From the IMG/VR virus record IMGVR_UViG_3300045988_128110, positions 1 through 64,000 of that record: a stretch of 64,000 bases of DNA; one strand, given 5' to 3'. The DNA comes from a virus. The notes under the pieces were generated by a model. It was not told where the DNA came from, ran no database searches, and saw only the letters and a list, made by a program, of their open reading frames with translations. The first letter of the stretch is position 1. Every line of letters starts with the position of its first letter. A program made the position numbers and the translations under genes. This document shows, piece by piece, positions 17,710 to 58,344 of the stretch.

Positions 17710-18294
17710 ATGACTATTAAGGAACAATGTATACATTTACGGGAAGAAGGAAAAACTTATAACGAAATTTGTACTATTCTACACTGTTCTAAAAGTACAG
17801 TTGCATATCATTTGAATACGACTACTAAGATAGCAGCTACAAAATGACAAAGCGAAAACAAATGTAAGGATTGAAAGTACAAATTTATGCATAGTTGTTC
17901 CAACTTTCTAAATCGAAGAGATAGATCTAAACATATCAGAACAATGTGTTCAGATTGAAATAAAAAGTTTAGAACTCACGTATCAGAGTTCAATAATAGA
18001 TATAAAAACAAAGGAAATTTGGCTAATAAATGTTATTACAAGGATGTGTTAACATATCTTAATGGAACTAATGTTAAATGTTATTTAACAGGTACACCTA
18101 TTGATTTGACAAAAGATGATTATTGTTTTGATCATATAGTTCCTGTATCAAAAGGAGGAACTAATGAATTATCAAATCTAGGAGTAACTATTCCCTCAGC
18201 TAATTATTCTAAACATGATTTAACTATAGAGGAATATTTGTCTTTATGTAAACAGGTTTTAGAACACCATGGGTATACTGTAAGTAAAACTTAA
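17710..18294 (+). CDS. HNH homing endonuclease with an N-terminal helix-turn-helix; three in-frame TGA codons
   Basis: HTH GKTYNEICTILHCSKSTVAYHL; HNH motif CYLTG...DHIVPVSKGG...N; ATG at 17710 is in frame with tracked ORF 18019-18294 (103 codons, counted). Confidence 0.65.
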
Positions 18295-18298
18295 AGAT

Positions 18299-18802
18299 AT
18301 GACTTATAAACAAATTTTTATTGGAGGGATTACTATTCTGGGTATGTATATGCTACTGGGTTTGATGTTAAATTTCCCATGTAAATCAGAAGTGCCTCCA
18401 GTAAACTCTCCTGTAATTATTACAGAAGATTGTGATTCTCTTACAGAGTGGCAAGTTTTTATCATGGCACTTGTTGAAGTAGAATGTGAGAGAAATCCAA
18501 AAGTAAAATCTAGTAAAAATGCAATAGGCCCATTCCAAATCACTAAAATTTATGTTGATGAAGTTAATAACTTATATAACACTAGTTTTGTGTTAGAAGA
18601 TGCTTGGGATCTTGATAAAGCTTTAACTATGTTCGAAATGATGAATGACCATTATAATCCAACTAGAGATATTGATAGAGCAATTAAACTACATAATCCT
18701 GGGGCTGGTAAATGGTATGGGAAAAGAATAAAAGATCGTATGGAACTAATTCGATTTAGTGAAGCACTAAGATTCAAAATTGTTGAACTTTACGATAATT
18801 AA
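18299..18802 (+). CDS. lytic transglycosylase (SLT-domain) endolysin with an N-terminal signal-anchor
   Basis: N-terminal TM helix, then VECERNPK...SKNAIGPFQI, matching the SLT E...GLMQ(I) catalytic motif. Confidence 0.55.
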   Translation: MTYKQIFIGGITILGMYMLLGLMLNFPCKSEVPPVNSPVIITEDCDSLTEWQVFIMALVEVECERNPKVKSSKNAIGPFQITKIYVDEVNNLYNTSFVLEDAWDLDKALTMFEMMNDHYNPTRDIDRAIKLHNPGAGKWYGKRIKDRMELIRFSEALRFKIVELYDN

Positions 18803-18803
18803 T

Positions 18804-18905
18804 ATGTGGTGGTTGATTGGATTACTATTAGCTATTGCTATCATACTTAGTCCTATGTTATGGGCTATTTATAAACATATAACGTATGAGAAGTTGAATA
18901 ACTAA
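18804..18905 (+). CDS. small membrane protein (33 aa), possibly a holin- or antiholin-like lysis cassette component
   Basis: MWWLIGLLLAIAIILSPMLWAIYKH, a single TM helix directly after the endolysin. Confidence 0.3.
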   Translation: MWWLIGLLLAIAIILSPMLWAIYKHITYEKLNN

Positions 18906-19497
18906 AATTTTAAGTGGAGTTGCAATTATTTTAGGAATAACTGTTTACTTCATGAATGTAAGGATAAATGATTTAAATAAATCATTAGACATATCCGTTA
19001 ATAATGAAAAAGCATACTCGGCTGAAAATTCAGCTTTAAAGGAAAGTAATATAGTTTTCAAATCTGAGTTAGCTCAAATGACCCACATGAATGATTCAAT
19101 TCTTGTGAAAATGCGAGAAGTAGCCCAAGAACTCAAAATAAAGGATAAGAAATTAGAATCTTTACAATATCAGTTAGAACATATTTCTAAGTCAGATACT
19201 ATTTTTATTAGAGATACTATATTTAAAGATCCTGGTTTTAAACTTGATACGTGTATTCAAGATAAATGGGCTAAAACTTGTCTACATCTTGAATATCCAA
19301 ATGAAGTAGGAGTGTCAAGCGAGTTTAACAATGAAAAGTATATTATTACTTCTTGGAAAAAAGAACCAATTAAGCAAAGGAAGTGGTTCCTTCCAAGATG
19401 GTTTACGAAAAAACAAAAAATTGTAACTGTTGACGTAGTAGATAAGAATCCTTATGTAACTACAGAAAGACAGAGATTTGTACAAATTGTAGATTAA
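18886..19497 (+). CDS. i-spanin-like protein (N-terminal TM helix plus periplasmic coiled coil); one in-frame TGA
   Basis: MRSWITKILSGVAIILGITVYF precedes the tracked ORF 18952-19497 in frame via a TGA (22 codons); the remainder is coiled-coil rich. Confidence 0.4.
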
Positions 19498-20245: not shown

Positions 20246-20248
20246 ACT

Positions 20249-23622: not shown

Positions 23623-24036
23623 ATGATACAGAAAGCTAGGGAATTTACTGTTCCTATTCTTAATGTTAAAGTGTCAATCCTAATTGGAAGTCCACTATCC
23701 GTAGAAAGTTACCTTCAGGATGTTCATAACAAAGTATTCGGACATAGTGCACCAAATGTAGTTGCAGAAACCTTTTATTCTACTGAATCAGATGCTGATG
23801 AGTTTTTGTATATTGCATTATACGATGATACAGATATAAAAGATTCTGCATATAACGTTATACATGAATGTCTTCATGCTGCTCATAAAATCTGCACTTT
23901 CAGAGGAGTTGAGTTAGATGAAGAGTTTCTATGTTATTTGCAGGAATTCTTAATTAACGAGGTATTTAAATGTTTGAATGCTGAACTGATGGTAGTTACA
24001 AACCATCAATTAACTGCGGAGGATACTCTGCAATAA
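23623..24036 (+). CDS. hypothetical protein (137 aa)
   Basis: Complete ORF; overlaps the RNase H start by about 66 nt. Confidence 0.35.
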   Translation: MIQKAREFTVPILNVKVSILIGSPLSVESYLQDVHNKVFGHSAPNVVAETFYSTESDADEFLYIALYDDTDIKDSAYNVIHECLHAAHKICTFRGVELDEEFLCYLQEFLINEVFKCLNAELMVVTNHQLTAEDTLQ

Positions 24037-24413
24037 TAACTCAAAATGGCAAAGTTATAAAAAAGCTTTACAGGGGTTATAAAAACACTACTAACAACCG
24101 TATGGAGCTTCTAGGGGTTTTAGAATGTCTTAGATATTTTACAAATCCTGAACAAATAACCATATATTCGGATTCTCAATATGTAGTATCGAGTATTAAC
24201 AACAAGCATCTTACCAAGTGGGTTGAAGACAATGATCAATCCAAAAAGAATCTTGATTTGTGATATCCGATTTATGAATTATTGAAGTTTCATACGGTTA
24301 CTTTTGTGTGAGTAAAAGGCCACAATAATAACAAATTTAATGAGTTAGCGGATTTATTTGCAACTCATGCAAGTGATTGTTTAGATCTACCAGAAGATAA
24401 TGGTTCATTTTAA
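23970..24413 (+). CDS. rnhA: ribonuclease H (RNase HI) with three in-frame TGA codons read as Trp
   Basis: MFECWTDGSY...YRGYKNTTNNRMEL...IYSDSQYV...KKNLDLWYPI...VTFVWVKGHNNNKFNELADLFA; the TGAs fall exactly on the conserved W of TDGS-proximal, DLW and WVKGH motifs; TAA stop at 24411-24413. Confidence 0.85.
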
Positions 24414-27380: not shown

Positions 27381-28319
27381 TTGGAACAAGTAAATACAAC
27401 ACTATTAAAAGCTCTATGCGAAATAGTACATCCTTCTAGACAGGAACAGTCCATGATAACTTATATACTTAACTTCTGTTATACAATAGAAGGTATACAA
27501 TTTGAAATGGATGATGAAAATAATCTTTTTATTACAAAAAATACTACTAATCCAGCAGTATATCCTTGTCTAGTAGCACATCTTGATGAAATCTTACATT
27601 ATACAGGTGTAAAATGTGCAAAAATTAAAGGGAATAAAATTTATGGCTATTATAAGAAGACAGGAAAACAATGTGGACTTGGATTAGATGACTGTTTTGG
27701 TATCTATATTTGTCTACATTGTTTATATTGTCTGCCAGACCTAAAGGTTTGTTTCACAACTCAAGAAGAAATGGGTTGTATAGGAGCAGAAATTGCAGGT
27801 TTAAATATTGATTTCTTTGATAATTGCAGATTCCTGTTACAAGCTGATAGAATGGGAGGTCAAGATTTGATTACACATACTAATGGCATAGACATTACTT
27901 CAGATGAGTTTCTAGAAGATATAGATAGTCTTTTAGAAAAATATAAGTACAAAGAGGCATGAGGTACAATGACAGATGTTGGAACTTTAAAAGAAAACAT
28001 TAATCTGTCTGCAGTTAATATTTCGTGTGGATATTATTGTGCTCATACACACAAAGAATATGGAAATTTAACGGAGTTAAATAATTGTTTAAATTTTATC
28101 TTAGAGATTATTAGGCTTAATGATAAAGTTTATGAACATACAGCTGATCTTTCTGGATCATATGCAAGGTATTCAGATTTTGATTGGCCTCCTGGAGAAT
28201 CTAAGCATGTTTATGCTTACCAAGATTCTGATGAAGCTTTCTATGAAAATCTTGCAGATAAGTGTTCCAACTGTAAGACTTATAGATGTGATGAGTGCGG
28301 TTACTATTGACGTGACTAA
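27381..28319 (+). CDS. metallopeptidase-like protein (M20/M28/M42-type metal-ligand pattern) with a C-terminal Cys-rich tail; TGA-joined
   Basis: HLDEI, GLGLDDCFG, TQEEMGCIGA spacing resembles a co-catalytic zinc peptidase; ORFs 27381-27962 and 27969-28310 are joined by TGA; true stop TAA at 28317-28319. Confidence 0.4.
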
Positions 28320-29539
28320 TGGACAAAACTCAACGTCAACGATTAGGCGTTCAAAAATGAATTAATAATAAAGGAAATGGGATTTGGGTTTGAAGTACTG
28401 GTGTTGGTAAATCATTTGGAGCTTTAATGGCTTGTGTGAAATTACTAAAAATTAGACCAGATGCTAAAATTCTAATTTCTGTACCTACAACAATTCTCAA
28501 GGAACAATGACTAAGGGACGTAGCTAAAACTAAATTCTTTGGAAATGTTACTGTTGAGGTTATTAATTCTATTTTAAAAAAATCTTGAGAAGTTGATTTT
28601 CTAATAATTGATGAGCTTCATACTGCGGTATCGGAGCAGTCGATAAAAATATTTGATCAAGTTAAATATGATTTCTTTCTGGGGCTTACAGCTACTTTAG
28701 AAAGACTTGATGGAAGAGAGGAATTACTATCTTTATATACTAAAGTAATCGATGTCATTACAACTGAAGAAGCAATAAAAAATGGATGATTATCGCCATT
28801 TAGGTATTACAAAGTTCTTGTGGAGGTTGATGACATGGATACTTATTATGTAATGAACCAAAAGTTTAATTCAGTCTTTGCGTTCTTTAATTTTGATTTC
28901 AATTCTGCAATGAAATGTGCAACTAATTGAAAGTTCCGTAATAATTATGCTTATAAGATGGGATATGATAGAAAGCAGGTTTTAAATGCTGCTATGGCGT
29001 GGATGCAATTAATGCAGAAGCGCAAAAAATTTGTTATGTCTCACCCTAAAAAGTTTGAAATAGCGAAAAAAATTATAGAAGCAAGAAAAGATAAAAAAAT
29101 TATTACTTTTTCAGCCACTATTAAGGATGCGGAATCTTTAAAAGTTGGATATACTCTTCATAGCAAAAAGAAAAAACAAGAAAACTCAGAAACTATTGCA
29201 TTGTTTAAGTCTCAATCTTCAGGGGTTCTTAATACATCTAAAGCAGCTAATGCAGGATTAGATTGCCCTGATATAAATTGTGAGATTAGAATTAGTGGAA
29301 CTAGTTCTGGAATTGATGCAAGGCAGATTTTGGGAAGGGGATTGCGTTATGTTAATAATAAGATAACTGAAGTTTTTACTTTGGTTGTTAAAGGCACTAA
29401 CGAAGAATCCTGGTTTAATAAGGCCCATCAAGGAATTTCATATATTACTATCACTGAAGATCAACTTGACTTAGTTTTAAAAGGAGAAGAAGTAATCACA
29501 AGAAAACGAGATGATGTAATTACTAACTATAGATTTTAA
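28319..29539 (+). CDS. SF2 DEAD/DEAH-box-like DNA/RNA helicase with seven in-frame TGA codons
   Basis: Walker A STGVGKS, LKEQW (TGA at the conserved QW), IIDELH (DExH), TAT, a GWL(S)P motif, QILGRGLRY (motif VI); TAATG overlap with the upstream gene. Confidence 0.8.
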
Positions 29540-29604: not shown

Positions 29605-30204
29605 ATGGAGTTAAATACCATACTTAACATAATGGCTGAATATCATATTAGTGCAGACGAACTGTTACTAATATGATTAACTCTCTATGCTCGGGATGAA
29701 GAAGGCCATTCTGAGCTTTTCTTAAAGTGGTGGACAGATTGTGAGGGAAAACAGAAACTGAAAACCATGTTTGAGAGCCTAAAAGAAAAATCCATAATCA
29801 AGAAAAATTATAATCCAGAATCTTATGTTCCTAATGATATCGAATTTAATAAAAATTTTCTAAAGAAGTATTATAAACAATCAGGAGTTCTTGGAAAGGA
29901 ACTATTTGATAACTATGAACCATTTATCCAAATTAATGGAAAGATGGCTAGTCTTAGGAATATTGCTAAGAAATTTTATACTTTAGAGGAATTTTACTTT
30001 TATTATTCTTCTCAAATAGGGCATAATCCAGAAAAGCATAAAGAGGTGATGGAAATTTTACGATGGGCTCGTGAAAACAAGCTTTGTAAGGTTTCTATTC
30101 TTGAGTTCGTTGCTTCTCATAAATGGAATGAATTTGCACAGATGAAGGCTGAAGGATTTAGTCCTGATGTTGGTACTTCTTTTGATGTTTATCAGGATTT
30201 TTAA
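29605..30204 (+). CDS. hypothetical protein (199 aa), possibly a helicase-associated N-terminal partner; one TGA
   Basis: ATG at 29605 lies 54 codons upstream of tracked ORF 29767 in frame via a TGA. Confidence 0.4.
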
Positions 30205-31298
30205 TGGAGGATCTAAATTTACTTTGGCATTTAATTGAGCAAGGTAGAAAAGGGGAAAATAAAGGTTTGTCTGTAGGATTACCTAAATTAGACAAGATTA
30301 TAGGTGGAATACAACCCTCAAGATACTATTGTATATCTGGAGCATCTTCTGCAGGTAAAACTGCTTTAGTTCTGTATTTTATATATCGGCTTTTTAAGGA
30401 TTATCCTAAAGAACCTATATATCTTGTTTATTTTAGTTTGGAGATTGGTTCTGAAGTGCTACTAGCGAAGCTTATGGCTTTGTATTGTGCAGAAGAATTT
30501 GGAGTATATCTTACTATAAATGATATCCTTTCCTTTGATTCTATTCTCAGTGATTCTGATTATCAGTATCTAAAGAAGGCAAGAGACTGGATTGCAACTC
30601 TTGGTTCCAGGTTAATTATTCTTGATAAGGGTCTTAATGCTCGCATTCTATATAAAGAGATCTGTGAGCTTATGAAGAAATTAGGTTCTATAGAAAATGT
30701 AGGAAATAAAGAAGTTTATGTTCCAAAACATCCTAGGCAAAGAGTAATTGGAGTTATTGATCATATGTCATTAATTAGACCAGAAGAAGGAAGAACCTTA
30801 AAAGCTGAAATTGATTTAACTTCGTCTTTTATGGTTACACTAAAACGTAAGTTTTATCTTTCTTGAATGGCTTTAATGCAGCAGAATAGAGAATCTTCTT
30901 CTATGGATAGAAGAAAAGCAGAACTTAATGAACCAGGTTTAAATGACGTAAAGGATTCAGGAGGACCTGTTCAAGATAGTGATGTAGTTCTTCAACTATA
31001 TTATCCTGCAAGAGACAAAATTCCAACATACCGAGAGTATAAAATTCTCGGACCTCATAGTTTAGCTGGAAGATTTAGAAGTATTATTGTATCTAAGAAT
31101 AGATATGGTATTGCAGACAGAGTAATAGGATGTGGATTTTATGGAGAAGTTGGGTGGTTTAAAGAGCTTCCACTAGGAAGAGATATTACTGACTTCACAA
31201 AATATTTGGACATTAACGCTAACATTAGAGGTATAGATACAACTGTAGTAGGTACAGTAGAAATAGATAAGAACAACATCGTATATAGTTTATCATAA
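30204..31298 (+). CDS. DnaB-like replicative helicase (RecA-fold C-terminal domain); TGA-joined
   Basis: GLSVGLPKLDKIIGGIQPSRYYCISGASSAGKTALVLYF matches the DnaB C-terminal Walker A region; ORFs 30204-30866 and 30867-31298 are joined by a TGA. Confidence 0.6.
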
Positions 31299-31299: not shown

Positions 31300-32037
31300 A
31301 TGTCTATTGTATTACCAACAGCGAAGGTTCCCGCTGAAACTCAGGATCCTAAAAACTTAATTCTATTTGGACTTCCTAAAGTAGGAAAAACTACCATTCT
31401 TAGTACACTGGAAAATAATCTTATTCTTGACTTTGAAAATGGTTCTACATATGTAGATGCTCTTAAAGTTAAGGTTTCTAGTTTAAAAGAGCTGAAAGAG
31501 GTTATTAAAGCTATCAAGGATGCAGGAAAGCCATATACTTATATTACAATTGATACAATCACAGCCTTAGAAGAAATGACCAAAGATATGGCTCTTAAAA
31601 TGTGGCAAAATTCTCCTCAGTTTACTACAAAGTATGAAATTAAGGACGTTACACAAATTCCCAATGGAGCTGGATATAGTTTTTGAAGACAGGCACTGGA
31701 AGCAGTTATTGACTTAATTGCCTCTGCTGCTCCTAACTTAATTATTTGTGGTCACGTTAAAGATACAGCATTATCTGAAGGTCTTGATGGATCTGTAAAA
31801 GATCTTGATCTTGTAGGTAAAACTAAAAGAGTATTATCTGCTAAATCTGATGCAATTGGATTTGTTCATCGTGATGAAGAGTCTAATTTGTGTATCAATT
31901 TTGGTATGAATGGAGAAGTACTTTGTGGTGCTCGTCCTGCTCATTTGGCAAATAAAGATATCATTGTAGCTGAGTATCAAGAAGATGGTACATTTGTATC
32001 TCATTGGGAGAGAATCTATCCCTCTCTGTCTAAATAA
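31300..32037 (+). CDS. Sak4-like RecA-family ATPase (putative single-strand annealing/recombination protein); one TGA
   Basis: Walker A LILFGLPKVGKTT, DTITALEE Walker B-like motif; the tracked ORF ends at TGA 31684-31686 and continues to TAA 32035-32037. Confidence 0.5.
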
Positions 32038-33262: not shown

Positions 33263-34306
33263 ATGCAATTTACATTAGGACCGACCACTGTTACTAAAGA
33301 ACTAATTCTGAACAGTGTAAGTGAAGAAACTTTAATGGAGCATTATTTAGGAGTCCCTGTGAAAAAGGGGCTCCTAAAATCTCCGTTAAGACAAGATAAT
33401 AAACCCACTTGTGCTTTTTATAGAAACAAGAAAGGAGATCTTATATTTAAGGACTTCCGTGGTGATTTTTCAGGTAATTTCATTTCGGTTGTAATGTATA
33501 AATTTCAATGCTCTTACGGAAAAGCCTTAAATATTATTGCTAATGACTTTGGAATAGTCTCTCGACCTAAGCTGCAAGTTAATCCCCCTCTTATTAAATA
33601 TACAAATAAAAAGTTTGAGGAAACACAAGAAGCTATTATACAAATAGAAGTGAAGGATTTTGAGCAGTATGAGTTAGATTGATGGCTAAAATTTGGAGTT
33701 ACTAGAAAGATATTAAGGAAATTTAGAATATTTTCCTGTAAGAACGTTTTTCTAAATGGAAACATATTTCATCTTCATAAAGATAAACAATTAGTTTTTG
33801 GGTATTTTGGAGGTATTCGAGAAGATATTGAACGCTGGAGAATATATTTTCCTGGCAATACAAAGTATAAATTTATATCTAATTGAAAATCTTTTAGGTT
33901 GCAGGGAGCACATGCTCTTCCCAAAGAGGGAGGAGAATATCTTGCAATTACTAAATCTTTAAAAGATGTTGCATGTTTATATAGTTGTGGTATTACAGCT
34001 ATAGCCCCAATTTCTGAGAACTGTTTTGTTACAGAGGCTCAATTTGAAAGGCTAAGTAAAAAATTTAAAAAAATTATTCTTTTTTACGATAATGACTCTG
34101 CTGGAATAACTCACATGAATAAGTTTAGAAAACAATTTCCAGATGTTTATGTGTTATGAATCCCCCGTCATTTTGGCGCGAAAGATATTTCTGACTATTA
34201 TAAGAAGTATGGTAGGGAAAAAACATTGAACTTAATCGAACAAGCTAAACTTAAGGTTAATGCCGAAGAAGAAAGAAGAAGAAAGTCCAAAGAAGAAGAG
34301 GTCTAA
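33263..34306 (+). CDS. DNA primase (TOPRIM, DnaG-like) with five in-frame TGA codons
   Basis: TOPRIM KIILFYDNDSAG, an N-terminal Cys/His putative zinc-binding region; ORFs 33263-33682 and 33899-34159 are joined only by TGAs; TAA at 34304-34306. Confidence 0.65.
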
Positions 34307-36739: not shown

Positions 36740-36917
36740 AGTAATTTTTAGAGATGAAACTTTAGCACAAGACAGTATCGTGGATTGTTGATTAAACGAT
36801 GTTGGAGATTTAGAGTTTAAATTGTACTTTGATCCTCCAGTAACAGAAACTTCTGACCTTGGTTCATTAGCTGGACAGTTATGCTATAGTTTCTGTAAAG
36901 CTTTAAAGGATGAATAA
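36726..36917 (+). CDS. small hypothetical protein (63 aa) with one TGA
   Basis: ATG at 36726 to TAA at 36915-36917. Confidence 0.3.
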
Positions 36918-42425: not shown

Positions 42426-42923
42426 ATGACAGTAGATATATTCAAGCATCCATTATTCACATCTTGTGGATTCTTAGGAGTATGACCAGGAGATAATTCC
42501 TCTTTTATTGATCAATTCCATTTAGGAGGAGAATATTGTGTTTATGTATTACTAGATTCATGATGTAAACATGATACAACCCTTTGTGGATGATCCTTTC
42601 CCTATGCTATTAAGTATATAGGAATGGGCCCCTACCCAGTAGGGTGAGGAAAAACAGGTAAGCGTCCACTAAATCATAAAAATGACTTATTTAGTGACCA
42701 TCTTAAATTAGACCCAAATCGTTATATATTGACCTTTCCATCAACATGCTTAGACAAACAGTCTGCCTTTGATTTAGAATCAATATTAATAGATGCTGCA
42801 TTGAAGGATTCTTATACATTATCCCCTAGAGGTTTAAGAAATGTTAGAACTCCAGATTTTCAGTTAATAAACAAAATAAGAGGTCATAAGATTAATGGAA
42901 GTTACCTTAGACAAGCTGCTTAG
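42426..42923 (+). CDS. GIY-YIG-like homing endonuclease with four in-frame TGA codons
   Basis: EYCVYVLLDSWCKHD...AIKYIGMG resembles the GIY-x10-YIG core; ATG at 42426 is in frame (101 codons) with the tracked ORF 42729-42923; ends at TAG. Confidence 0.5.
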
Positions 42924-43653
42924 TGGCAAATCAACACGAATTAATTCAAAAGATTTTCTTTCAACAGAAGACTATGTAAAGCCTTTTATTGAAGAAATGA
43001 GTAAATTCACTTCTACTTATAGAATAGAAGCTATCCCTCCCTCTCAAGTTACTACAGATAAAGAAGGAGAGGATATTACCTATAACAGGGTATTAGTGCA
43101 GGCAATCATGCCTACTCAAATAGATGAGTATAATGAAATATATACTTTGGCATATTCTTTAGACATAAGAAGACCTATTTATAAAGTATATAAAGCAATG
43201 TTTAATAATACTACTAATTCAATAATTGCATTTGATCCAAATTGATTGGTAGTTAATGAGATTAAACCAGCAGAGACCTTTACACTTCCAATTCAAAACT
43301 TAATGAGTTTTACAAGTGACTTTGAAGTTAAACTCAAGAAATATAAAAACGATACTTTATCTACTAAAGAAAATGATCGTTATGTAAGACTAGGTTCTTG
43401 GATTGAAAAATGTCAGTTTGCAGTATGGCAAAATGACTTTGGAGGAAAGGTTAAATGGTCTCCAACAAATGTTGTTAAGGCTTATAATAACATTTATATA
43501 AATACATCAAGTGATTATTATGTTGGTGATAAGGACTCATCTGTAATTAATACATATAATTCATTTGCACAGTTAATTGCAGATGATAAAAAAGATATTT
43601 GCAATAAGTTTGAGAAAACTATGCTAATTAATTTATTATTAGAATTAAAGTAA
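42895..43653 (+). CDS. hypothetical protein (252 aa); TGA-joined
   Basis: ORFs 42895-43245 and 43246-43653 share a frame and are separated only by a TGA. Confidence 0.4.
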
Positions 43654-45896
43654 TGACAGTTGAGCAATGGTTAAATAATGACGAATTAGCTATTACTATC
43701 TGGAAGAATAAATATAGGTTTGAAGATGAATCGCTAGACGATTGGTTCAAAAGAGTTTCTGGAGGTAATGAAATCGTAGAAGAACAGATTAGAGCTAAAA
43801 AATTTATTTTTGGAGGCAGAATCCTTGCTAATAGAGGGTTATCTGATAAAAATAGAAAAATAACATATTCAAACTGTTATGTAGTTGCTCCTCCTGAAGA
43901 TAATCTTGAATCTATTTTTGAGTGTGGGACAAAGTTAGCAAGAACATTCAGCTACGGGGGAGGTTGTGGAATTGATATTTCTAATTTGAGACCTTCTGGA
44001 GCAAAAGTTAATAATGCTGCAAAAACTACTTCTGGGGCTGTAAGCTTTATGGATTTCTATTCATATATTACTGGACTAATCGGTCAGAGTGGTCGTAGGG
44101 GAGCACTAATGATTTCTATTTCTTGCGATCATCCAGATCTTGAAGAGTTTATTGAGATTAAGTCTGACTTAGATAAAGTTACAAAAGCTAATATCTCTGT
44201 TAGAGTTAGTGACAAATTTATGGAAGCAGTTATTAAAGGTGAAACTTTAATATTGAAATTCGTAACTGATACTGGTGAAACAATTACTAAAGAGGTAGAA
44301 GCATATCCTATTTTTAGGAAGCTTGCTCAAATGAACTGGGATTATGCTGAACCTGGTATATTGTTTTGGGATAGAATAACTAGCTGGAACTTATTATCAA
44401 ATAATAAAGAATTTTCTTATGCAGGAGTAAATCCCTGTGCTGAAGAACCTCTGCCAGCTGGAGGGAGCTGTCTTCTTGGAAGCATAAACCTTGCAGAATT
44501 TGTTACAAAAGAAAGAAAACTTGATCTTATCTCCTTAAGAGAAACTATTCGAGTTGCAGTTATTGCTTTGAATGAAGTTCTTGATGAGGGTCTTCCTTTA
44601 CATCCTTTACAAGAACAAAGGGATTCCGTAGCAGAGTGGAGACAAATTGGTCTTGGTGTTATGGGTTTGGCTGATATGCTTATCAAATTAAGAGTCAAAT
44701 ACGGTAGTGCTACTTCTAGATCCGTTTTAGAGTCAATTGGACATGAATTAATCATGACTGCTCTGGAAACTTCTTCTATGTTAGCTGCTAACTATGGACC
44801 ATATCCTAAATTTAATCGCGATTGTGTTATACAAACTCCTTTCTTTAAGAATTTAGATTCTGGGGATATGAATGATTTGCGTTTCCAAAGTTTGCACGAT
44901 GTTATATGTAAGTATGGTTTACGCAATTCTCAATTACTTACTTGTGCTCCAACTGGCAGTATTGCAACCATGCTAGGAGTGTCTACAGGTTGTGAACCAA
45001 TTTTTGCAACCTCTTATACACGTAAGACTGAATCTTTAGTAAATGAGGAAAAGTATTATAAAGTATATACCCCAATTATAAAGAAGCTTATTGATGAAGG
45101 ATTTTCTGAAGAAGCTTTACCCGAGTATGTGGTTACATCAGAACAGATTCCATATAGAGAAAGAATTAAGGTTCAAGCAACTTTACAGGAGTTTATTGAT
45201 GCTTCTATTTCTTCTACTATAAATCTTCCAGAGTCAGCTACTGTTGATGATGTAGAAACTATTTATAGATTAGCTTGGGAGGAAGGTTTAAAGGGTGTTA
45301 CAGTTTATCGTTCTGGATGCAAAAGGGGTGCAGTCTTATCAAAGAATCCCGTAATTAAAGAATGCCTAAAACGTCCTGAATCTGTTGAAGCTAAACTAAT
45401 TAGATTTAAGAATGGTTTTGAGAATTGGATTGCATTTGTAGGTCTCATTGATGGAAGGCCTTATGAAATTTTTACTGGTATTAACAATATAGAAGATTTT
45501 CCAATTCCCACCTCAATCACTGAGGGAGAAATTATTAAAGTAAAAGACTCTTTAGGCAAACGATATGATTTTCAATATACTGATAAATACGGGTATACTA
45601 ACCGTTTAGGAGGATTGTCTCGCATCTTTAATCAAGAATACTGGAATTACGCTAAATTAATATCTGCTTTATTAAGAGGTGGTATTGAATTAGATAAGGT
45701 AGTTAAGATTATTGATGGAATGCATTTTGAGTCAGATACTCTAAATACTTGGAAGAATGGTGTAAAGCGTGCTATTAAAACTTTTATAGTTGATGGAGTT
45801 GCTTCACATGAAGTTTGCCCAGATTGTGGTGAGCATTTGATATACGAAGGGGGATGTACTATATGTAAAAATTGTGGGTTTAGTAAATGTGGATAG
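43653..45896 (+). CDS. ribonucleotide reductase catalytic subunit (probably class II, B12-dependent) with a C-terminal zinc ribbon
   Basis: KFIFGGRILANRG N-terminal RNR motif, a CGT/SNC active-site region, C-terminal CPDCG...CTICKNCG; no NrdB-like gene nearby. Confidence 0.65.
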   Translation: MTVEQWLNNDELAITIWKNKYRFEDESLDDWFKRVSGGNEIVEEQIRAKKFIFGGRILANRGLSDKNRKITYSNCYVVAPPEDNLESIFECGTKLARTFSYGGGCGIDISNLRPSGAKVNNAAKTTSGAVSFMDFYSYITGLIGQSGRRGALMISISCDHPDLEEFIEIKSDLDKVTKANISVRVSDKFMEAVIKGETLILKFVTDTGETITKEVEAYPIFRKLAQMNWDYAEPGILFWDRITSWNLLSNNKEFSYAGVNPCAEEPLPAGGSCLLGSINLAEFVTKERKLDLISLRETIRVAVIALNEVLDEGLPLHPLQEQRDSVAEWRQIGLGVMGLADMLIKLRVKYGSATSRSVLESIGHELIMTALETSSMLAANYGPYPKFNRDCVIQTPFFKNLDSGDMNDLRFQSLHDVICKYGLRNSQLLTCAPTGSIATMLGVSTGCEPIFATSYTRKTESLVNEEKYYKVYTPIIKKLIDEGFSEEALPEYVVTSEQIPYRERIKVQATLQEFIDASISSTINLPESATVDDVETIYRLAWEEGLKGVTVYRSGCKRGAVLSKNPVIKECLKRPESVEAKLIRFKNGFENWIAFVGLIDGRPYEIFTGINNIEDFPIPTSITEGEIIKVKDSLGKRYDFQYTDKYGYTNRLGGLSRIFNQEYWNYAKLISALLRGGIELDKVVKIIDGMHFESDTLNTWKNGVKRAIKTFIVDGVASHEVCPDCGEHLIYEGGCTICKNCGFSKCG

Positions 45897-48563: not shown

Positions 48564-49730
48564 ATGCATGATATATTAATTTCTAGAGATTCTAGAGGAA
48601 AGGTTAGAGTTGTTGATATTTCTTACGAATGAAATGATACAACTCATAGCTTTCTAATTATTAGGAAAACATCTCAATGAGGAGGCAAAGTAACTAATCA
48701 GCCTATTATTGAAGTTAAAAGAGGAAAGGCACAGCGTACAGCTGCAGAACAAGTTAAGTTGGAATATAACAGTAATGTTAAAAAATATCTTGATAAAGGA
48801 TATAAAAATATTCGAGATTTTAAAATCGAATCACTGGATGATATAGATGATCCAGGAAAACTACTTGGAGATATAACCACAGACCAATCTGGTGCTCCCA
48901 AACCAATGTTGGCTAAAAGCTTTGATGGTGTGGCCACCTCAACATTTGAGCATGAATTTTATGGCTCAACAAAAATAGACGGAACACGATGCCTTATGCA
49001 TTGGAATGGTTCTGAAGTTGTGACTTCTTCAAGGGGAGGAAATAACTATGATGTCGCAGCTAACTATATTAGGAAGGATCCAAAAGTGATGAAGTGACTT
49101 AAAGAGAATCCAAATATATGATTAGATGGAGAATTATATGTGCATGGACTGCCCTTATCATATATTTCTGGTATTGTTAGACTTCAAACCTTAGATGATA
49201 AGCACAAGCAATTAAAGTATTATGTTTACGATTTAGCTATCCCTGATGTAAAATTTAAGGATAGATTAAAGATTTTAGAGGATTTTGAGAAAGCTGTTTC
49301 TGATTCTGACAAAATTGTAATGGTTAAACATGTAAAAATATCAGGTTGGCTAAATATGAAAGCTCTTCACGATCAATATGTTAATGATGGTTGGGAAGGT
49401 TTAGTGATCAGAAATCCAGATAAAGAATACAAGTTTGGCACACGAGATAATCGTATGATTAAACTTAAAATGTTTGAAGATCACGAATATAAAATTCTAG
49501 ATTTAGTAGATGGCCTCAGAGATGAGGATTTATGTTTCTTAATGGAAACTAAAGAAGGATATCAATTCAAGGCTAAGCCTATGGGAGATAGAGCTTTAAA
49601 ACAATGATATCGTGATCACATTGAAGAATTAAAAGGTCAAATGGGTACTGTAAAACATTTTGGAATGACTAAAACAAATACTCCAGTACCTAATCTCCCT
49701 GTATTTAAAGCAGTTCGAAATTATGAATAA
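48564..49730 (+). CDS. ATP-dependent DNA ligase with five in-frame TGA codons
   Basis: Motif I KIDGTR, motif III LDGELYV, motif IV EGLVIRNP, motif V R.IKLK; ATG at 48564 lies 65 codons upstream of tracked ORF 48759; ORFs 48759-49097 and 49140-49607 are TGA-joined; TAA at 49728-49730. Confidence 0.8.
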
Positions 49731-52182: not shown

Positions 52183-52614
52183 ATGGATTTAAATATTTAT
52201 GTAGAGAAATTGTATCAGGCTTGAATTAAATATAAAGGAGTTAGAATTCTTGTAGACTATGATGATACAATTAAACCGTATAATACAGCTTCTGAAGCTC
52301 TTTGTAAAGACATAATTAATACTTTAATTGAAGCCCAAGAACTAGGAGCTACGGTAGTTCTATGGACCTGTAGATCTGGGACCCGTTTAAAGGAAGCTGT
52401 AAATTATTGTAAATCTGTAGGATTAGAATTTACTGATATCAATCCTGTAGAACCTTTCTTACCAGGGTATTCTATGAAAGCCTATGGTAATATACTACTT
52501 GATGATAAAGCTGGATTAGAACAAGCTTTAATTACATTAAAATTAGCATTATACAAATATAAAAAGTTCGTTTATGAAATTAACGAGAAGCAAAGATTGC
52601 AATCCTAACTACCT
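52183..52614 (+). CDS. hypothetical protein (143 aa) with one TGA
   Basis: ATG at 52183 to TAA at about 52612-52614; overlaps the start of the RNA ligase gene. Confidence 0.3.
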
Positions 52615-53953
52615 TGCTAAGATTGTACAAATTGATTCATTTAGACCTCACCCTAATGCTGAGCGTCTAAAGTTAGCAACTGTTGATGGATATATAATTT
52701 CCACATCAATTGATTCTGCAGAGGGAATCTATGTATATTTTCCTGTTGAATGTGTTATCAATTCCGACTTTTTGAAGGTTAATAATCTTTACAGAAAAGC
52801 AGACCTTAATCTTGATCCTACTAAACAAGGATTTTTTGAAGAGTCTGGTCGAGTAAAATGTATTAAACTAAGAGGACTTGCATCAGAAGGGCTTATCATG
52901 CCTATCTATGAGTTGTGTAAATTTGCTGGAGAAGGAATTGCAGAACCTATAGATTCTGTTGAAATGTCAAAATTAGTAGGAACAGAATTTGATACTGTAA
53001 ATGATAAATTGTTTGTCTGGAAGTATGTAATTCCTACTAAAACTTCTGGTGGAGGAATTAATGGCTCAGCTAAAGAAAAGAAGAAAGTTCTTAATATAGT
53101 TGACGATCAATTCCATTTTCACATTGATACAGAACAGCTACAGAAAAATATTCATAAGGTTCAGCCAACTGACATCATTAATATCTCTTGGAAAGAGCAT
53201 GGAACAAGTTTGATCCTATGTAACCTACTTACTAAGAAAAATCTTTCTCTGAAGGAAAAAATTGCTAAATTCTTTGGAGTTCCTGTATCTGAAAGTGAAT
53301 ATAAGAAATTCTGTTCATCTAGAAAGGTTATCAAAAACCCTGAACTAAATCCTGGTATGACCAAAGGATATTACGATTGTGATATTTGGAATCTTGCCTT
53401 CGAAGTATTAAAGGATTACTTATCTAAGGGGCTTTCTATCTACGCAGAAATTGTGGGATATATGCCTACAGGATCTATGATTCAATCTGGATATGATTAT
53501 CAATGTATCTATGATCCTAAAACTTATGAGTATTCAAAAATGACTCCTAAACAAATGTATGATGCAAAACTGTTTGACATTATTGTTTACAGAATTACAT
53601 ACACTAATGTAGAGGGAAGAGTTTTTGAATTCTCTACTCAACAAATGAAGACCTTCTGTGAAAAGTATGGAATTCATTGTATTAAAGAGCTCTACTATGG
53701 AACAGCACAACAACTATTCCCTGAGTTGAATCCCAATGAGCATTGGCATGAAAATTTCTTGCAAGCATTGAGAGATAAATATTTAGAGAGAGAGTCTGTT
53801 CTTTGTAACAACAAAGTTCCCGAAGAGGGAATTGTACTTCGTAGAGAAGTAAGTGAAATTGATGTTTATAAACTTAAGTCAGTAGCATTCCTTGAGAGAG
53901 AAACTAAGATGCTCGATAAGGGGGAAGCTGACATTGAATCAGGACAAGAATAA
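52574..53953 (+). CDS. RNA ligase (Rnl2-like nucleotidyltransferase) with an N-terminal extension
   Basis: Motif I KEHGTS (KxHGT), motif IV EGIVLR, motif V YKLK. Confidence 0.6.
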   Translation: MKLTRSKDCNPNYLAKIVQIDSFRPHPNAERLKLATVDGYIISTSIDSAEGIYVYFPVECVINSDFLKVNNLYRKADLNLDPTKQGFFEESGRVKCIKLRGLASEGLIMPIYELCKFAGEGIAEPIDSVEMSKLVGTEFDTVNDKLFVWKYVIPTKTSGGGINGSAKEKKKVLNIVDDQFHFHIDTEQLQKNIHKVQPTDIINISWKEHGTSLILCNLLTKKNLSLKEKIAKFFGVPVSESEYKKFCSSRKVIKNPELNPGMTKGYYDCDIWNLAFEVLKDYLSKGLSIYAEIVGYMPTGSMIQSGYDYQCIYDPKTYEYSKMTPKQMYDAKLFDIIVYRITYTNVEGRVFEFSTQQMKTFCEKYGIHCIKELYYGTAQQLFPELNPNEHWHENFLQALRDKYLERESVLCNNKVPEEGIVLRREVSEIDVYKLKSVAFLERETKMLDKGEADIESGQE

Positions 53954-54468
53954 TGAGGTCGTTTTCTAAAGAAGAAATTCAGGCACTCAAAGAAAACAAG
54001 GAAGTTTTATATTTTTATAAGCTTCCTTGTTCTTTATTTGATTCTGGATTTCAATATATTATTGTTACTGATGCTCTAGAACCTCCTGAAAAATATGATA
54101 ATGTAAAATATCTTTCTTCTCAGTGTTGGTTTCAAAGAATGCAAAATGGGAGTTTACTCCCAATAGTTTGCACATCACTTGGAAAATCCTATAAGATAAA
54201 AGAATATGTATCTGTCTATGTAAAGCCAGATATTATAAAGCTTAGAAAATTACTGGAAAACAGTTTATTAGGAGCTTGTAAATATCCTTGAAGTTTATCT
54301 GATGATGAAATTATACAAGAATCTTTATGGGGAATCCAAGTAATTAAAGAGGGAAGAGTGAATAGAATTGATGTATTTAAATCAATTTATAAGGTGACTG
54401 AAGCTTTTAGTGAATTTTTAGAAGTATCTGCACCAATGTATCAAATGTGGAGGGAGAATAATGAGTAA
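53953..54468 (+). CDS. hypothetical protein (171 aa); one TGA
   Basis: The tracked ORF ends at a TGA and continues to TAA at 54466-54468. Confidence 0.35.
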
Positions 54469-55360
54469 GATGATCGTACTTCAAGGCTGTCCTGCTTCAG
54501 GTAAAAGTACCTGGGCTAAAGAGTTTATAAAGGATAAGCCTAACTGGGTAATTGTATCCAGAGATGAAATTAGAGAGGGAACTGGTAAATATTGAGTTCC
54601 ATCTCGTGAAAATTATATTTCTGATATTGAAGAATTTTCTATTAGAGCAGCTATTAATCATAACTTAAACGTTATTGTAGATGCCACTAATCTTAATCAG
54701 AAAACTATTGATAAGTTAACTAAACTCGCTACTGAACTAAAGGTAGACATAGAGTTTAAAAAGTTTGTTATTTCATTTAATGAAGCGTACTGGCGTGATA
54801 CGAAAAGAACTCGTAAAGTAGGACTGGCAGTATTACGTAGGTTCTTTAATACATATTTTCCTGATATGTCTCAGGAAATTGTAAACCAAGAAAAGGAATC
54901 TTCAGCTAAAGAAAGATTTATTCTTAAACAAGATGAAACTCTTCCTCATGCTATTATTTGTGATATTGATGGAACTTTATCATTAATGAATGGAAGAGGT
55001 CCGTTTGAGTATCATCGAGTAAATGAGGATCTTCCAAATAATCCTGTCATTGATTTAGTTAACTCTTTATCAAAGATGTATCAAATTATTATTGTTACAG
55101 GTCGTGAAGATACCGAAGTATGTAGGAAAGAAACTCTTAAATGGCTGAATAGATATTTAACATGTAGCGATTTTTTATTCTATATGAGAAAAGAAAAAGA
55201 TTATAGAAAGGATGCTATTGTTAAGACTGAAATTTATAATGAACACATTAAAGATAAATATTGTGTAGCTGCGGTATTCGACGATCGAGACCAGGTTGTG
55301 AACGATTGTTGGAGAAAGCTAGGATTACTATGCAATCAGGTTTGGAAAGGAGATTTTTAA
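54461..55360 (+). CDS. pnk: polynucleotide 5'-kinase/3'-phosphatase (T4 Pnk-like) with two in-frame TGA
   Basis: Kinase P-loop GCPASGKST at the N-terminus; HAD phosphatase ICDIDGTL; ATG at 54461 lies 135 codons upstream of tracked ORF 54866 in frame. Confidence 0.8.
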
Positions 55361-55361
55361 T

Positions 55362-55625
55362 ATGACTGTTGATGAATTTAATGATAAATGGAAGAACCAT
55401 TTAGAAGAAGGATTTGAAGGATTGGAGTTTAGTGATGCTGAAGGGAAGGTTGTGGATTGGTTAGATAAACATTTTGTTTTATTTGAATTAATAAATCCAG
55501 AGTTTACTTATGTGCAAATTAAACTCAAATTTGGAATGGCTAGAGTATATCTTCAAGGGCTTCCTAGTACATGTGCACAAATAGCAGAAGATGCAATAAA
55601 TAAAATTATGAAATGCGAACTTTAA
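55362..55625 (+). CDS. hypothetical protein (87 aa)
   Basis: Complete ORF. Confidence 0.3.
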   Translation: MTVDEFNDKWKNHLEEGFEGLEFSDAEGKVVDWLDKHFVLFELINPEFTYVQIKLKFGMARVYLQGLPSTCAQIAEDAINKIMKCEL

Positions 55626-56352
55626 TTAAATTATATCAGATGCTTTATATAGGAGTATGTAGGATGAATTACTGCATTACTCCTATATATGAGCCTATTC
55701 TATTATTTATTAGTTCTTATGTCTAAGAATATTCCTGATAGCTGTTGAGATAATGATCCTTCAGCACCTTGGAATGATATACAAGTAACTTATAATTATA
55801 GGTTATATGTAAATCTCGATGGTATTCTATTTGCTTCCGAAATTATAAGAGAAGTAACTACATTTGGCCACTTTGAAATCAAATCTCCAGATGATTGGTC
55901 TTTTCTTGAAAATGATATCTATCAAGTTATAGAAGATAATCTTGGGGATGAAATTAAGGAATGTAACTACAAGATTGACTTACTAAACTGAAGCTATAAT
56001 GAATAAATATGTAATTGTAGAATGACCAGATATTCAATTTTTAATGACTGAATCTGGTTTTAACGAACATGCCTGTCTCATTAATGATGATGAATGAGTG
56101 TCTAAATATGGTTCTTCTGCATACTTTGTTGAAGAAGAATGATTAAATAGAATATCATATGAAAGCTAAAGTTAAAGGATTTGATCTTGAAGTTGAACCA
56201 ATGACAAAATATGATTATAATGATCGTATTTTGAAACTTCAAGTACAACATAGAGAAAATAAGAGAATCAATGGATTCTATTGCAACTGGAATGGTTATA
56301 AGTTCTGAATAGATGAAATTGATTTTAACAAGATATATACTATTGAAGAATA

Positions 56353-58344
56353 ATGATATACTTAGTCACTAACGCTCCAGCCTTAATAAAACCCACTAAA
56401 TATACTTGTATTTCTGTTAAAGAAGCTTTAAGTATGTTGGAAAGGTTAAAGATTGTTGGTGTGGATACTGAAACTGAGGGTTTCGATGTCTATACTAAAA
56501 AACTGTTATCTCTTCAGCTAGGATGCTTTGATTTTCAGGTAGTTATTGATTGTACAACAGTTAATGTTTTGTTATTTAAAGATTATCTTGAATCTGAGCG
56601 ATTATTTCTTTTTTGAAATGCAAAATTTGACTTAAAATTTTTATACTACTATGGAATTATTCCAAGATATGTATGGGATGGGTATCTTGCAGAGAAGCTT
56701 ATGTGGCTCGGATATCCTTCTGGTATGCATGGAATGGGTCTTAAAGATGCAGGAATAAATTATCTTGGAGTAGAACTGGATAAGACTGTTCGAGGTCAAA
56801 TTATAAATAAGGGTTTAACAGAAGATGTTATAGTTTATGCTGGAACAGATGTTAAATACCTAGAACCTATAATGGAGAAGCAAAAAGAAAAACTTAAAGA
56901 ACAAGGACTTCTTGATGCTATCCGTGTTGAAAACACATTTGTTAGATGTTTAGCTTATATTGAATTCTGTGGAGCTAAAATTGATCCAGAGAAATGGAAA
57001 AAGAAACTGGAGAATGATTCTAACTTATGTGAAGATTTAATCTGTCAACTCAATAAATGAGTTGAAGATAATATGGGAGGTAAGTATACAACTGTAAATA
57101 GACAAGGTGATCTGTTTGATGGATTTGATACTCGTCCCAGATGTCATATTAATTGAAAGAGTGCACAACAAGTGATTCCTCTTTTTGAAGATCTTGGTTT
57201 AAATCTTTCAGTAATTGATCCTAAGACCAAACGTCCAAAAAAGTCTACTGATATTAAAGTTATAGGACCGCAAGCTTCTAAAAGTCCATTAATTTCTATA
57301 TTTATGGAGTATAAGAAAGCTGCGATTTTAGTAGATACCTTCGGAGAAAAGTTTTTAGATCTTATAAATCCAAAGACTAAACGCATTCATGCTAATTTTA
57401 ACCAGTTAGGCACTGATACAGGCCGATTGAGTTCAACTAATCCGAATCTTCAAAATCTCCCAAGTGATGCTTTAACACGTTCTTGTTTCATTGCAGAGCC
57501 AGGCAATAAATGGATTTCAGCTGACTATTCTGGCCAAGAAAGTTTTTTAATGGCATCCATTGCCAATGATAAAGCTATGCTTGACGAATTAGTGAATGGT
57601 TCAGGAGACTTACATAGCCTAACTGCTAAAATGGTATTCCTTGAAATTCCAAGAGACACTCCACTTAAAGCAATTAAAACAGAGTATCATCATCTAAGAA
57701 AAGAAGCAAAGGGCTATGAATTCTGTTTTAATTATGGAGGAATGGATAATACTCTTGTTAGAAATTATGGAATTTCTGAAGAGCGGGCCAAAGAAATCTA
57801 TACTAACTACATGGAGGGTTTCTCAGGACTGAGAGACTATCAAAAGTTTAGAAGAAAGGATGTAATGGAAAAAGGATATATACTTTTAAGTCCAATTACT
57901 GGGCATAAAGCATATATCTATGACTTTGCTGAACTTAAACGCCTCTGGAAAAAACAATGTGAGAAAGGATTCTGGGAGTATTATAGAGAAATGAAACGAG
58001 ATGCCCCAGATTGTGAAACTGTACAAAATGTTAGAAAATTAGCAAAAAGACGTGCAGAGTCCGAGAAACAGTCAATCAACTACCCTATTCAGGCCGCTGG
58101 CGCCCTTACATTCAAGTATGCGTCTATTTTTCTATTTAAATATTTACAGGAACATAATTTATTGTTTAAAGTAAAGTATTGTATACCTGTGCACGATGAA
58201 ATTAATCTTGAGGCTCCTGCGGAGATTGCAGAAGAGATAGGAAAAGTTCTTGTACAATGTATGGAGAAGGCTGGTGCAGTATTTTGTAAAAGAGCTAAGC
58301 TTAGTGCTGATTTGACTATTGGAGATTATTGGATACATGAATAA
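56353..58344 (+). CDS. polA: family A DNA polymerase (Pol I-like, with 3'-5' exonuclease domain); three tracked ORFs joined by three TGA codons
   Basis: Exo motifs VGVDTETEG and NAKFDLKFL; motif A DYSGQE; KEAKGYEFCFNYGG; motif C VHDEI; ORFs 56353-56616, 56701-57060 and 57172-58344 are in one frame with only TGAs between them. Confidence 0.85.

Follow-up and report, generated by a model that had tools for sequence, protein, structure and literature searches.

TGA appears to encode tryptophan in about half of the replication and DNA-metabolism genes of a putative crAss-like phage, probably through a phage-encoded suppressor tRNA

Introduction

How does a phage make its replication proteins if stop codons of the standard genetic code interrupt the genes that encode them? 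The question is raised by a 64,000-nucleotide stretch of viral DNA from IMG/VR (positions 1 to 64,000 of record IMGVR_UViG_3300045988_128110; we refer to this whole stretch as the window). It contains in-frame TGA codons in the genes for DNA polymerase, primase, helicases, DNA ligase, and other enzymes of DNA metabolism. A first-pass annotation saw two ways out: either a suppressor tRNA is expressed immediately, or the host natively reads UGA as tryptophan. This framing was fair, and the evidence favors an early suppressor and makes the second kind of host unlikely. Overall, about half of the replication and DNA-metabolism genes in the window read TGA as tryptophan, and this is probably driven by a suppressor tRNA that the phage itself encodes.

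In-frame TGA codons in replication genes

We delimited open reading frames (ORFs) by TAA and TAG only, masked TGA as X, and scanned the translations against Pfam. Every gene of the window is on the + strand, and the curated set, for which we chose start codons, has 81 genes. We counted TGA only downstream of the best start, so TGAs that lie in a stop-to-stop frame but upstream of the true start were discounted (56344; 28289, 28292, and 28313; 30165 and 30183).

By Pfam, the region from 17 to 64 kb is a replication and nucleotide-metabolism module. Besides the genes listed below, its members include a radical SAM enzyme, RlaP, dUTPase, an SF1 helicase, an RNA ligase, thioredoxin, ThyX, and a deoxynucleoside monophosphate kinase.

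17008 to 17592, + strand: first gene with in-frame TGAs (17074, 17182); it opens the recoded block
17710 to 18294, + strand: helix-turn-helix (HTH) domain and probable HNH endonuclease; 3 TGA (17845, 17872, 17956), 0 TGG
18886 to 19497, + strand: transmembrane/coiled-coil gene; 1 TGA (18895), at codon 4
23970 to 24413, + strand: RNase HI (Pfam RNase_H); 3 TGA (23982, 24261, 24309)
28319 to 29539, + strand: XPB/Rad25-like SF2 helicase; 6 TGA, 3 TGG; PDB alignment in frame across the TGAs
30204 to 31298, + strand: DnaB-like replicative helicase; 1 TGA (30864), inside the DnaB_C match
31300 to 32037, + strand: AAA_24 ATPase; 1 TGA (31684)
33263 to 34306, + strand: Toprim primase; 3 TGA (33680, 33884, 34157)
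42426 to 42923, + strand: small gene; 4 TGA, 0 TGG; the TGAs are kept in 16-17 relatives
43653 to 45896, + strand: ribonucleotide reductase (RNR); 0 TGA, 11 TGG; a TGA-free example within the recoded block
48564 to 49730, + strand: ATP-dependent DNA ligase; 5 TGA, 3 TGG
54461 to 55360, + strand: polynucleotide kinase/phosphatase (Pnk); 1 TGA (54593)
56353 to 58344, + strand: family A DNA polymerase (PolA) with a 3'-5' exonuclease domain; 3 TGA (56614, 57058, 57154), 7 TGG

TGAs lie inside the Pfam matches of RNase H, the SF2 helicase, the DnaB-like helicase, the AAA_24 ATPase, the primase, the ligase, Pnk, and both domains of PolA. The first-pass annotation had reported in-frame TGAs in PolA, the primase, the DnaB-like and SF2 helicases, the ligase, RNase H, and Pnk, and these Pfam spans, along with the codon alignments described below, uphold the list. 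Its merging of gene fragments across TGA was right as well: the domain and structure alignments are continuous, and standard-code relatives have TGG. The SF2 helicase is the most recoded large gene of the window. For RNase H, the alignment to PDB runs in frame through all three TGAs and spans the catalytic motifs. In the PDB chains shown, the TGA at 24261 is opposite the W of a conserved DLW, the one at 23982 is opposite Y or F, and the one at 24309 is opposite K or F. The position that matches 24309 is presumably W in E. coli RNase HI (in WVKGH).

Some gene names were less secure than the TGAs within them. Two genes had been described as homing endonucleases, and both do contain TGAs. The call for the first (17710-18294) consists of several sub-threshold HNH matches plus an HTH, while the second (42426-42923) has no PHROG family and no match in Pfam at E ≤ 0.01. 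Likewise, the gene at 18886-19497 does have a TGA, but it matches no PHROG family that would support its label of "spanin-like." PHROGs also gave no family for an SLT-like gene or for several hypothetical genes.

TGA aligns to tryptophan

Four scans of IMG/VR yielded over 100 related loci for codon-level alignment (some of these are identified below by L and a number). In these alignments, TGA in the window corresponds to TGA in near relatives and to TGG in distant relatives with the standard code. For example, the relatives' codons are TGG in 48 and TGA in 14 cases for position 56614 of PolA, 50 and 14 for position 57154 of PolA, and 23 and 10 for position 31684 of the AAA_24 gene. In the first recoded gene (17008-17592), the site at 17074 is TGG in some relatives. 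The TGA of Pnk (54593) is found in this genome alone, and all 48 aligned relatives have TGG. Among relatives with under 70% identity, tryptophan is opposite 54% of the TGA sites (followed by Y, E, and F), as compared to 61% of true TGG sites. Because TGA and TGG interchange in relatives, and because the substitution profile is like that of tryptophan, the alignments indicate that TGA is tryptophan, and neither selenocysteine (Sec) nor glycine. Nor is it a lesion, since 10-38 independent assemblies share these TGAs.

TGA is absent from the first 17 kb

Upstream of the recoded genes is a block without TGA:

1 to 16981, + strand: code-neutral leader block, with 7 tRNA genes and auxiliary metabolic genes

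Pfam identifies the leader's genes as Band7, NADAR, isochorismatase/PncA-like, NAMPT, NadE, PurA-like, GMP reductase/IMPDH-family, and MgtC. The GC content is 0.36-0.38 across the first 12 kb (1-12000, the NAD-salvage/purine cluster), and about 0.32 overall. The cluster also contains a gene similar to phosphoribosyl pyrophosphate synthetase.

The 19 curated genes that lie before 17 kb contain 68 TGG and 0 TGA codons. From 17,008 on, 61 of 230 tryptophan codons (27%) are TGA (the other 169 are TGG), and these TGAs are spread over 28 of 62 genes. The contrast between the blocks (0/68 vs. 61/230) is significant (P = 2 · 10−8, Fisher exact test), and the relatives keep it: TGA accounts for 12 of 612 tryptophan codons in their leaders (with 600 TGG) and for 1055 of 3858 in their recoded blocks. 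TGA is not used as a terminator either, as no gene in the window ends with it. This is most telling for the leader (0 of 19 genes), where gene ends do not depend on the code. In crAss-like relatives with the standard code, 40% of genes end in TGA, which gives a probability of about 6 · 10−5 for 0 of 19. Because TGA is absent from the leader as both a sense codon and a stop codon, the leader is code-neutral: it reads alike with or without suppression of UGA.

The TGAs of the recoded block cluster by gene (62 runs vs. 90.7 ± 5.9 expected; gene-level chi-square P < 2 · 10−4). They abound in the replisome stretch at 24-30 kb, in the ligase, and in the endonuclease-like genes, but are absent from RNR, the SF1 helicase, ThyX, the RNA ligase, the radical SAM enzyme, and RlaP. 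TGA is also about threefold rarer than other purine-ending codon pairs would predict (27% vs. 68-83% ending in A). Both the under-use of TGA and its clustering fit a costly codon that depends on a suppressor. Of the 61 TGAs, only 2 have a TAA within 6 codons, about as many as chance would give.

The first-pass annotation had proposed comparing the TGA density of each gene to predicted promoters. The density could be mapped, with the clustering just described, but the promoters could not: a scan of 11.5-21 kb for sigma-70 promoters and terminators gave counts that were not above those for shuffled sequence, so transcription units could not be defined.

A tRNA-like gene with a UCA anticodon at the code boundary

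ARAGORN identified nine tRNA genes in the window, including one with the anticodon (UCA) that would read UGA:

17604 to 17694, + strand: five-arm tRNA-like gene with UCA anticodon (ARAGORN); allele 1, presumed opal suppressor

This gene adjoins the code boundary: the first TGA-bearing gene is at 17008-17592, and the tRNA follows at 17604-17694. Directly 3' of it is the free-standing HTH-HNH gene. We found no other UCA tRNAs in the window or in 40 kb of flanking sequence from relatives.

In the 91-nt element, the acceptor stem is 7 bp and the D arm is reduced. The anticodon arm (GGAGGU-CUUCAAA-ACCUCU) is followed by a long extra arm (GCUG-UUGGUCCAUCUU-CAGC, with a 12-nt loop that contains UCCAU) and a T arm with the loop AUCGUUA, and the discriminator is G. 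Its minimum free energy structure, as computed by RNAfold, is a cloverleaf with the extra arm (-34.4 kcal/mol). In 9 related loci (11 contigs in a scan of the collection), the element matches at 100% identity, and in 2 of the 9, the neighboring protein is only 60-61% identical. Two other contigs have a compensatory change (G>A/C>T) in the anticodon stem. A search with the anticodon arm found tRNAs of the window's type in this clade only (13 contigs, with two sequence variants); the other matches were to unrelated coding DNA.

ARAGORN labels this tRNA as "SeC," but we rejected a selenocysteine tRNA: the acceptor/T geometry is 7/5 instead of 8/5, and the TGA sites correspond to tryptophan, not to cysteine or selenocysteine. 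Rfam's tRNA-Sec model matches just 19 nt of the anticodon arm (11.5 bits).

An intron-split allele in related phages

Six other close relatives have a split tRNA gene at this site in place of the tRNA and the HNH gene. When its two parts are joined by intron-aware ARAGORN, the result is a tRNA of 94 nt whose anticodon is UCA. These relatives have inserts of 605-629 nt, located between positions 33 and 34 of the anticodon loop (gtctt^caaaa). Across the collection, 20 contigs were found to have this second allele; their inserts range from 341 to 633 nt, and the junction is gtctt^...aag^caaaa. (The split gene is at L072:5956-6658, with equivalents in L065, L068, L071, L075, L079, and L185-L204; the corresponding site in the window is 17602-18285.) In another relative (L070), an allele of the window's type is interrupted at the same point by a related insert.

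Among seven distinct spliced sequences, there are compensatory changes in 4 of the 7 acceptor pairs and in 1 T-stem pair. The spliced structure is 97.8% paired, as compared to 38-50% if the partners are slid out of register. Because pairing co-varies across the insert, the two exons work as one tRNA.

The longer inserts have an ORF, which encodes a PDDEXK_5 endonuclease (E = 10−14). The ORF in the insert of L068 has only sub-threshold matches to Endonuclease_7 and HNH_3, along with an HNH-like motif that we identified by eye. The junction is like that of a group I intron (U ends the 5' exon, and G ends the insert), but neither a 605-nt insert with an ORF nor a 360-nt insert without one matched Rfam's group I intron at E ≤ 1.

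Elsewhere in the window, a gene for a PD-(D/E)XK endonuclease of the same family (PDDEXK_5) as the ORF within the tRNA insert is spread over two overlapping frames (2877-3283, with frames at 2877-3068 and 3023-3283) and has in-frame TGAs. The split could be a frameshift, a pseudogene, or programmed frameshifting.

The spliced form of the second allele resembles tRNA-Trp: the acceptor begins AGGGG (with A or G at position 1), it has U8 and A9, the D arm and the T arm are canonical, and the discriminator is G73. Between the UCA arm and the T arm is an extra hairpin whose loop, CUCCAAA, is the anticodon loop of tRNA-Trp. In the variants from L068 and L072, the stem of the extra arm is 5 bp, and it mimics the anticodon arm of tRNA-Trp exactly. 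In E. coli, G73 and the CCA anticodon are the reported basis of tRNA-Trp identity (PMC2965240). Purely as a hypothesis, the extra arm (CUCCAAA, or UCCAU in the window's allele) might let the host's tryptophanyl-tRNA synthetase (TrpRS) charge a tRNA whose anticodon has been altered.

More broadly, we offer a tentative proposal that may well be wrong: the "missing" opal suppressor of this clade could be a five-arm UCA tRNA, derived from tRNA-Trp and overlooked by standard tools, with an extra arm that might act as a decoy for TrpRS and a gene that is a hotspot for introns and homing endonucleases. In the literature that we searched, we found no description of a five-arm, intron-bearing UCA tRNA that is derived from tRNA-Trp.

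Lineage and host

The best matches of PolA are crAss-like (64.6% identity to cr111_1 and about 54% to Bacteroides phage crAss001 and IAS virus), and RNR also matches crAss-like phages. In a blastn comparison of 40-48 kb to INPHARED, only RNR matched (65-70% identity). Relatives with 95-99% identity are on contigs of 170-178 kb from human-gut data sets. The stretch fits part of a Zeta-type crAss-like gut phage of about 175 kb. PolA relatives at 50-65% identity mostly use the standard code, and a few are TAG-recoded. One of them is independently TGA-recoded and has an ordinary 74-nt UCA tRNA.

In close relatives L006-L010 and L027-L029, the PolA match covers 2.9 kb instead of 2.0 kb; these relatives have an insertion of about 925 nt that is not in the window. 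It is perhaps an intron or an intein with an endonuclease, a reading that we give with a question mark.

As for the host, the window shows no enrichment of Shine-Dalgarno motifs (16 of 81 gene starts, as compared to 12.3 ± 3.2 at random positions), and the sequences ahead of the genes are A/T-rich. The lack of these motifs is typical of Bacteroidota and their phages. Host prediction, which the first-pass annotation had recommended, did not succeed with NadE: the nearest bacterial homologs, from Butyrivibrio (Lachnospiraceae) and other Clostridia, are 39-49% identical, which is too distant to name a host. For opal polA genomes of the Zeta group that seem to be similar, iPHoP predicted Faecalibacillus and Holdemanella as hosts (PMC12386605).

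How is UGA decoded?

We think it likely that the phage reassigned TGA from stop to tryptophan, that its host uses the standard code, and that the phage makes its suppressor early. One reason is the TGA-free leader: genes that are translated on both sides of the switch in code would be expected to avoid TGA as sense and as stop. The others are the location of the suppressor, on the same strand and where the recoded block begins at its 5' end, the minority and uneven use of TGA, and the presence of other codes in sister lineages. The leader, the tRNA array, and the suppressor would be expressed first after infection, using unmodified host translation. As the suppressor needs no translation, it would accumulate quickly; it would be charged with tryptophan by the host's TrpRS and would compete with release factor 2 (RF2). 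The replication and nucleotide-metabolism genes would then become translatable. In other words, the replication genes would behave as "middle" genes that are gated by the suppressor, and the genes similar to homing endonucleases, in which TGA is 100% of tryptophan codons, would be gated most tightly. Ahead of the replication genes is a leader of at least 27 kb: 17 kb within the window plus, in relatives, about 10 kb of tRNA array. The term "early" for the replication genes is an assumption, and given this leader, they may be "middle" genes.

Several points weigh against this explanation. Most uncertain is the role of the aberrant 91-nt RNA as the working suppressor, along with the manner of its charging. 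It escapes both the tRNA model and the tRNA-Sec model of Rfam, whether at the gathering threshold or at E ≤ 10, and it has a reduced D arm, the T loop AUCGUUA, and an acceptor stem that is unlike that of tRNA-Trp. We presume that it is a suppressor charged with tryptophan, and both this function and this amino-acid identity should be viewed as putative. A gene with six TGAs needs very efficient suppression in the face of the host's RF2, and Pfam scans of the window showed no genes for release factors, anti-RF2 proteins, or TrpRS. We consider the leader to be early on the grounds of gene order and codon content only. The TGA densities are for the leader and the replication side of the genome, with the structural and lysis genes lying outside the window (none of the window's genes are structural). 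Also, the published host predictions and the Clostridial homologs of NadE are both at odds with the Bacteroidota-like lack of Shine-Dalgarno motifs.

If the 91-nt element is not the working suppressor, then UGA needs another decoder. This could be a second tRNA elsewhere in the genome, near-cognate pairing by a phage tRNA-Trp(CCA) or by a host tRNA, or a phage factor that disables RF2. There is room for this, as about 110 kb of the genome lies beyond the window, and in relatives the sequence upstream of the window includes a CTA tRNA along with a normal tRNA-Trp(CCA). The rejection of the 91-nt element by covariance models and its aberrant T loop and D arm point the same way. Yet the element is perfectly conserved where flanking genes fall to 60% identity, and its anticodon stem shows a compensatory change. 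It is also located at the code boundary, at the same site as the clearly tRNA-Trp-derived UCA tRNA of sister genomes, and the searches of the window and of its relatives' flanks turned up no second UCA tRNA. On balance, another decoder seems unlikely.

A host that natively reads UGA as tryptophan (genetic code 4, as in Mollicutes) is considerably less probable still. The phage would then mirror its host, and the UCA tRNA would only supplement the host's. This would account for TGA being tryptophan and never stop anywhere in the window, and phage tRNAs often duplicate functions of the host. Also, the Erysipelotrichaceae are a family of Bacillota that was formerly classed with the Mollicutes, and it is this family that has been named as host for similar genomes. 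(Those predictions are from PMC12386605.) But a native code-4 host gives no reason for a leader that is free of TGA across the clade (0/68; 2% vs. 27%). Nor does it fit the codon usage: TGA is about threefold under-used relative to other codons that end in A (27% vs. 68-83%), and it is patchy by gene. Furthermore, the lineage is crAss-like, and PolA relatives at 50-65% identity have either the standard code, with TGA as 40% of stops, or TAG recoding. Neither the host lineages that are predicted in the literature nor the lineages with the nearest NadE are known to depart from the standard code.

Finally, it is hardly credible that the in-frame TGAs are not tryptophan codons at all (but instead Sec or Gly codons, pseudogene lesions, assembly errors, or boundaries of introns or inteins), despite ARAGORN's "SeC" label for the UCA tRNA, the abundance of introns and inteins in Zeta-group phages (PMC7886860), and one TGA site in the ligase that is GGA in 16 relatives, because the sites align to TGG and tryptophan with the same profile as true TGG sites (54% W), the TGAs are kept in 10-38 independent assemblies, the protein alignments continue in frame across them, and the tRNA has 7/5 rather than 8/5 geometry and fails the tRNA-Sec model.

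Comparison to other recoded phages

The first-pass annotation implied that recoding of replication genes was new, which overstates the case: variable recoding of these genes has been published for Lak phages, Zeta crAss-like phages, and others. Zeta-group genomes are 145-192 kb, contain many introns and inteins, and switch frequently between standard, amber, and opal codes (PMC7886860), and one Zeta PolB has been shown to be full of TGAs (Yutin et al. 2021, PMC7886860). The study that proposed "Lera"/Echekviridae reported TGAs in a Lera helicase and RNA polymerase (RNAP) and noted that TGA or TAG can sit in DNA-processing genes (PMC12386605). Across recoded clades, Borges et al. described the recoding of replication genes as "variable," and as nearly complete in Lak (10.1101/2021.08.26.457843). 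So, opal recoding of DNA-processing genes is already published for the Zeta group, and the suppressor tRNA is the more novel lead.

The phage resembles the Zeta group in its family A PolA, its GC content of about 32-33%, the 170-178-kb contigs of its relatives, and the use of TGA for tryptophan. Mobile introns, homing endonucleases, and a large array of tRNAs close to the replication block are shared as well. We assign membership from the similarity of PolA (at most 64.6% identity to cultured or named crAss-like phages) and from the sizes of related contigs; the crAss hallmark genes (those for the major capsid protein, the terminase large subunit, the portal protein, and the giant RNAP) lie outside the window. 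Published summaries stress late genes; here, in contrast, few parts of the window are as heavily recoded as the replisome module. Two opal polA genomes, ctvkg4 and ctPTU4 (176 kb, GC 32-33%), are reported in a 2025 survey to have no detectable suppressor tRNA (PMC12386605, Table 1), which is consistent with a tRNA that is missed by standard models, as in the window.

The Mgcod study described dual-coded early blocks, with a suppressor at the head of the recoded block (10.1101/2022.06.29.495998). Here too, one block reads the same under codes 11 and 4, and the suppressor tRNA is at the 5' end of the recoded block, which implies the same order (the suppressor, then the recoded genes). There are two differences. 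The dual-coded block in that study consists of replication and transcription genes, whereas here it contains tRNAs and metabolic genes, and it is the replication genes that are recoded. Also, in that study, the code switch follows a strand switch, while in the window both blocks are on one strand.

Agate and Jade phages (TGA) and Lak phages (TAG) are likewise recoded phages with suppressor tRNAs and standard-code hosts (10.1101/2021.08.26.457843). In Agate, an intron homing endonuclease is preferentially recoded, and similarly, TGA is 100% of tryptophan codons in the HNH gene and in the gene at 42426; but Agate belongs to another lineage, and the replication genes are TGA-free in the Agate example. 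Some Jade phages carry an operon for TrpRS and RF1, which we did not see in the window. As for the phages of Mollicutes, which have native code 4, they share the use of TGA for tryptophan and not as a stop; here, in contrast, TGA is a minority codon that is absent from a 17-kb block, and relatives use other codes.

Introns in the anticodon loop are known from bacterial tRNA genes, and homing endonucleases are known from phage tRNA clusters (for example, SegB of T4). The insert in our phage's relatives, with its PDDEXK_5 ORF, fits this pattern, as do the coexistence of intron-plus and intron-less alleles and the free-standing HNH gene that adjoins the intron-less allele. The absence of an Rfam group I match for the relatives' inserts sets them apart. 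Class II tRNAs and allo-tRNAs also have an extra arm before the T arm and unusual anticodons, including readers of stop codons (Mukai et al., PMC5389517). However, the body of the second allele is like tRNA-Trp (class I). The acceptor/T geometry is 7/5, the extra arm has the CUCCAAA loop, and the linkers are 5 and 4 nt.

Other features of the window and its relatives

Two other tRNAs in the window are atypical. An 86-nt tRNA at 14038-14123 has a UCU anticodon (Arg, AGA), a long variable arm (a class II shape), and A as the discriminator. At this site, some relatives have an ordinary 73-nt tRNA-Arg(UCU). This class II-like tRNA led us to consider the reassignment of AGA, which we rejected, as AGA sites align to R or K just as CGT sites do. 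The tRNA-Ser(GCU) at 16586-16671 scores below the gathering threshold of Rfam's tRNA model and scores 41.9 bits on the tRNA-Sec model (threshold 47), which is a further sign that the phage's tRNAs are atypical.

The large complement of tRNAs is near genes for the radical SAM enzyme, an RlaP-type nucleotidyltransferase, the RNA ligase, and Pnk (35831-38007 and 52574-55360). Together, these look like an RNA (tRNA) repair set.

In one relative, the sequence directly upstream of the window's position 1 (L139:1-10000) is a dense array of 15 further tRNA genes. One of them is a normal tRNA-Trp(CCA), and another, of 81 nt, has the amber anticodon CTA. Despite this CTA tRNA, there was no sign of TAG recoding in the clade.

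Implications

For annotation, this phage needs code 4, as otherwise about half of its replication genes are split into fragments. For host assignment, the evidence speaks against deducing a Mollicutes-like host from the use of TGA for tryptophan. The core replisome, and not only the virion or lysis genes, would depend on the phage's suppressor, so the switch of code would take place very early in infection. The boundary is sharp: a code-neutral leader, then the suppressor, then the recoded genes. An unusual suppressor tRNA of this kind could explain why many opal-recoded phages seem to lack one. And should the extra arm play a part in charging, it would offer a natural way to re-target tRNAs in which the anticodon serves as an identity element.

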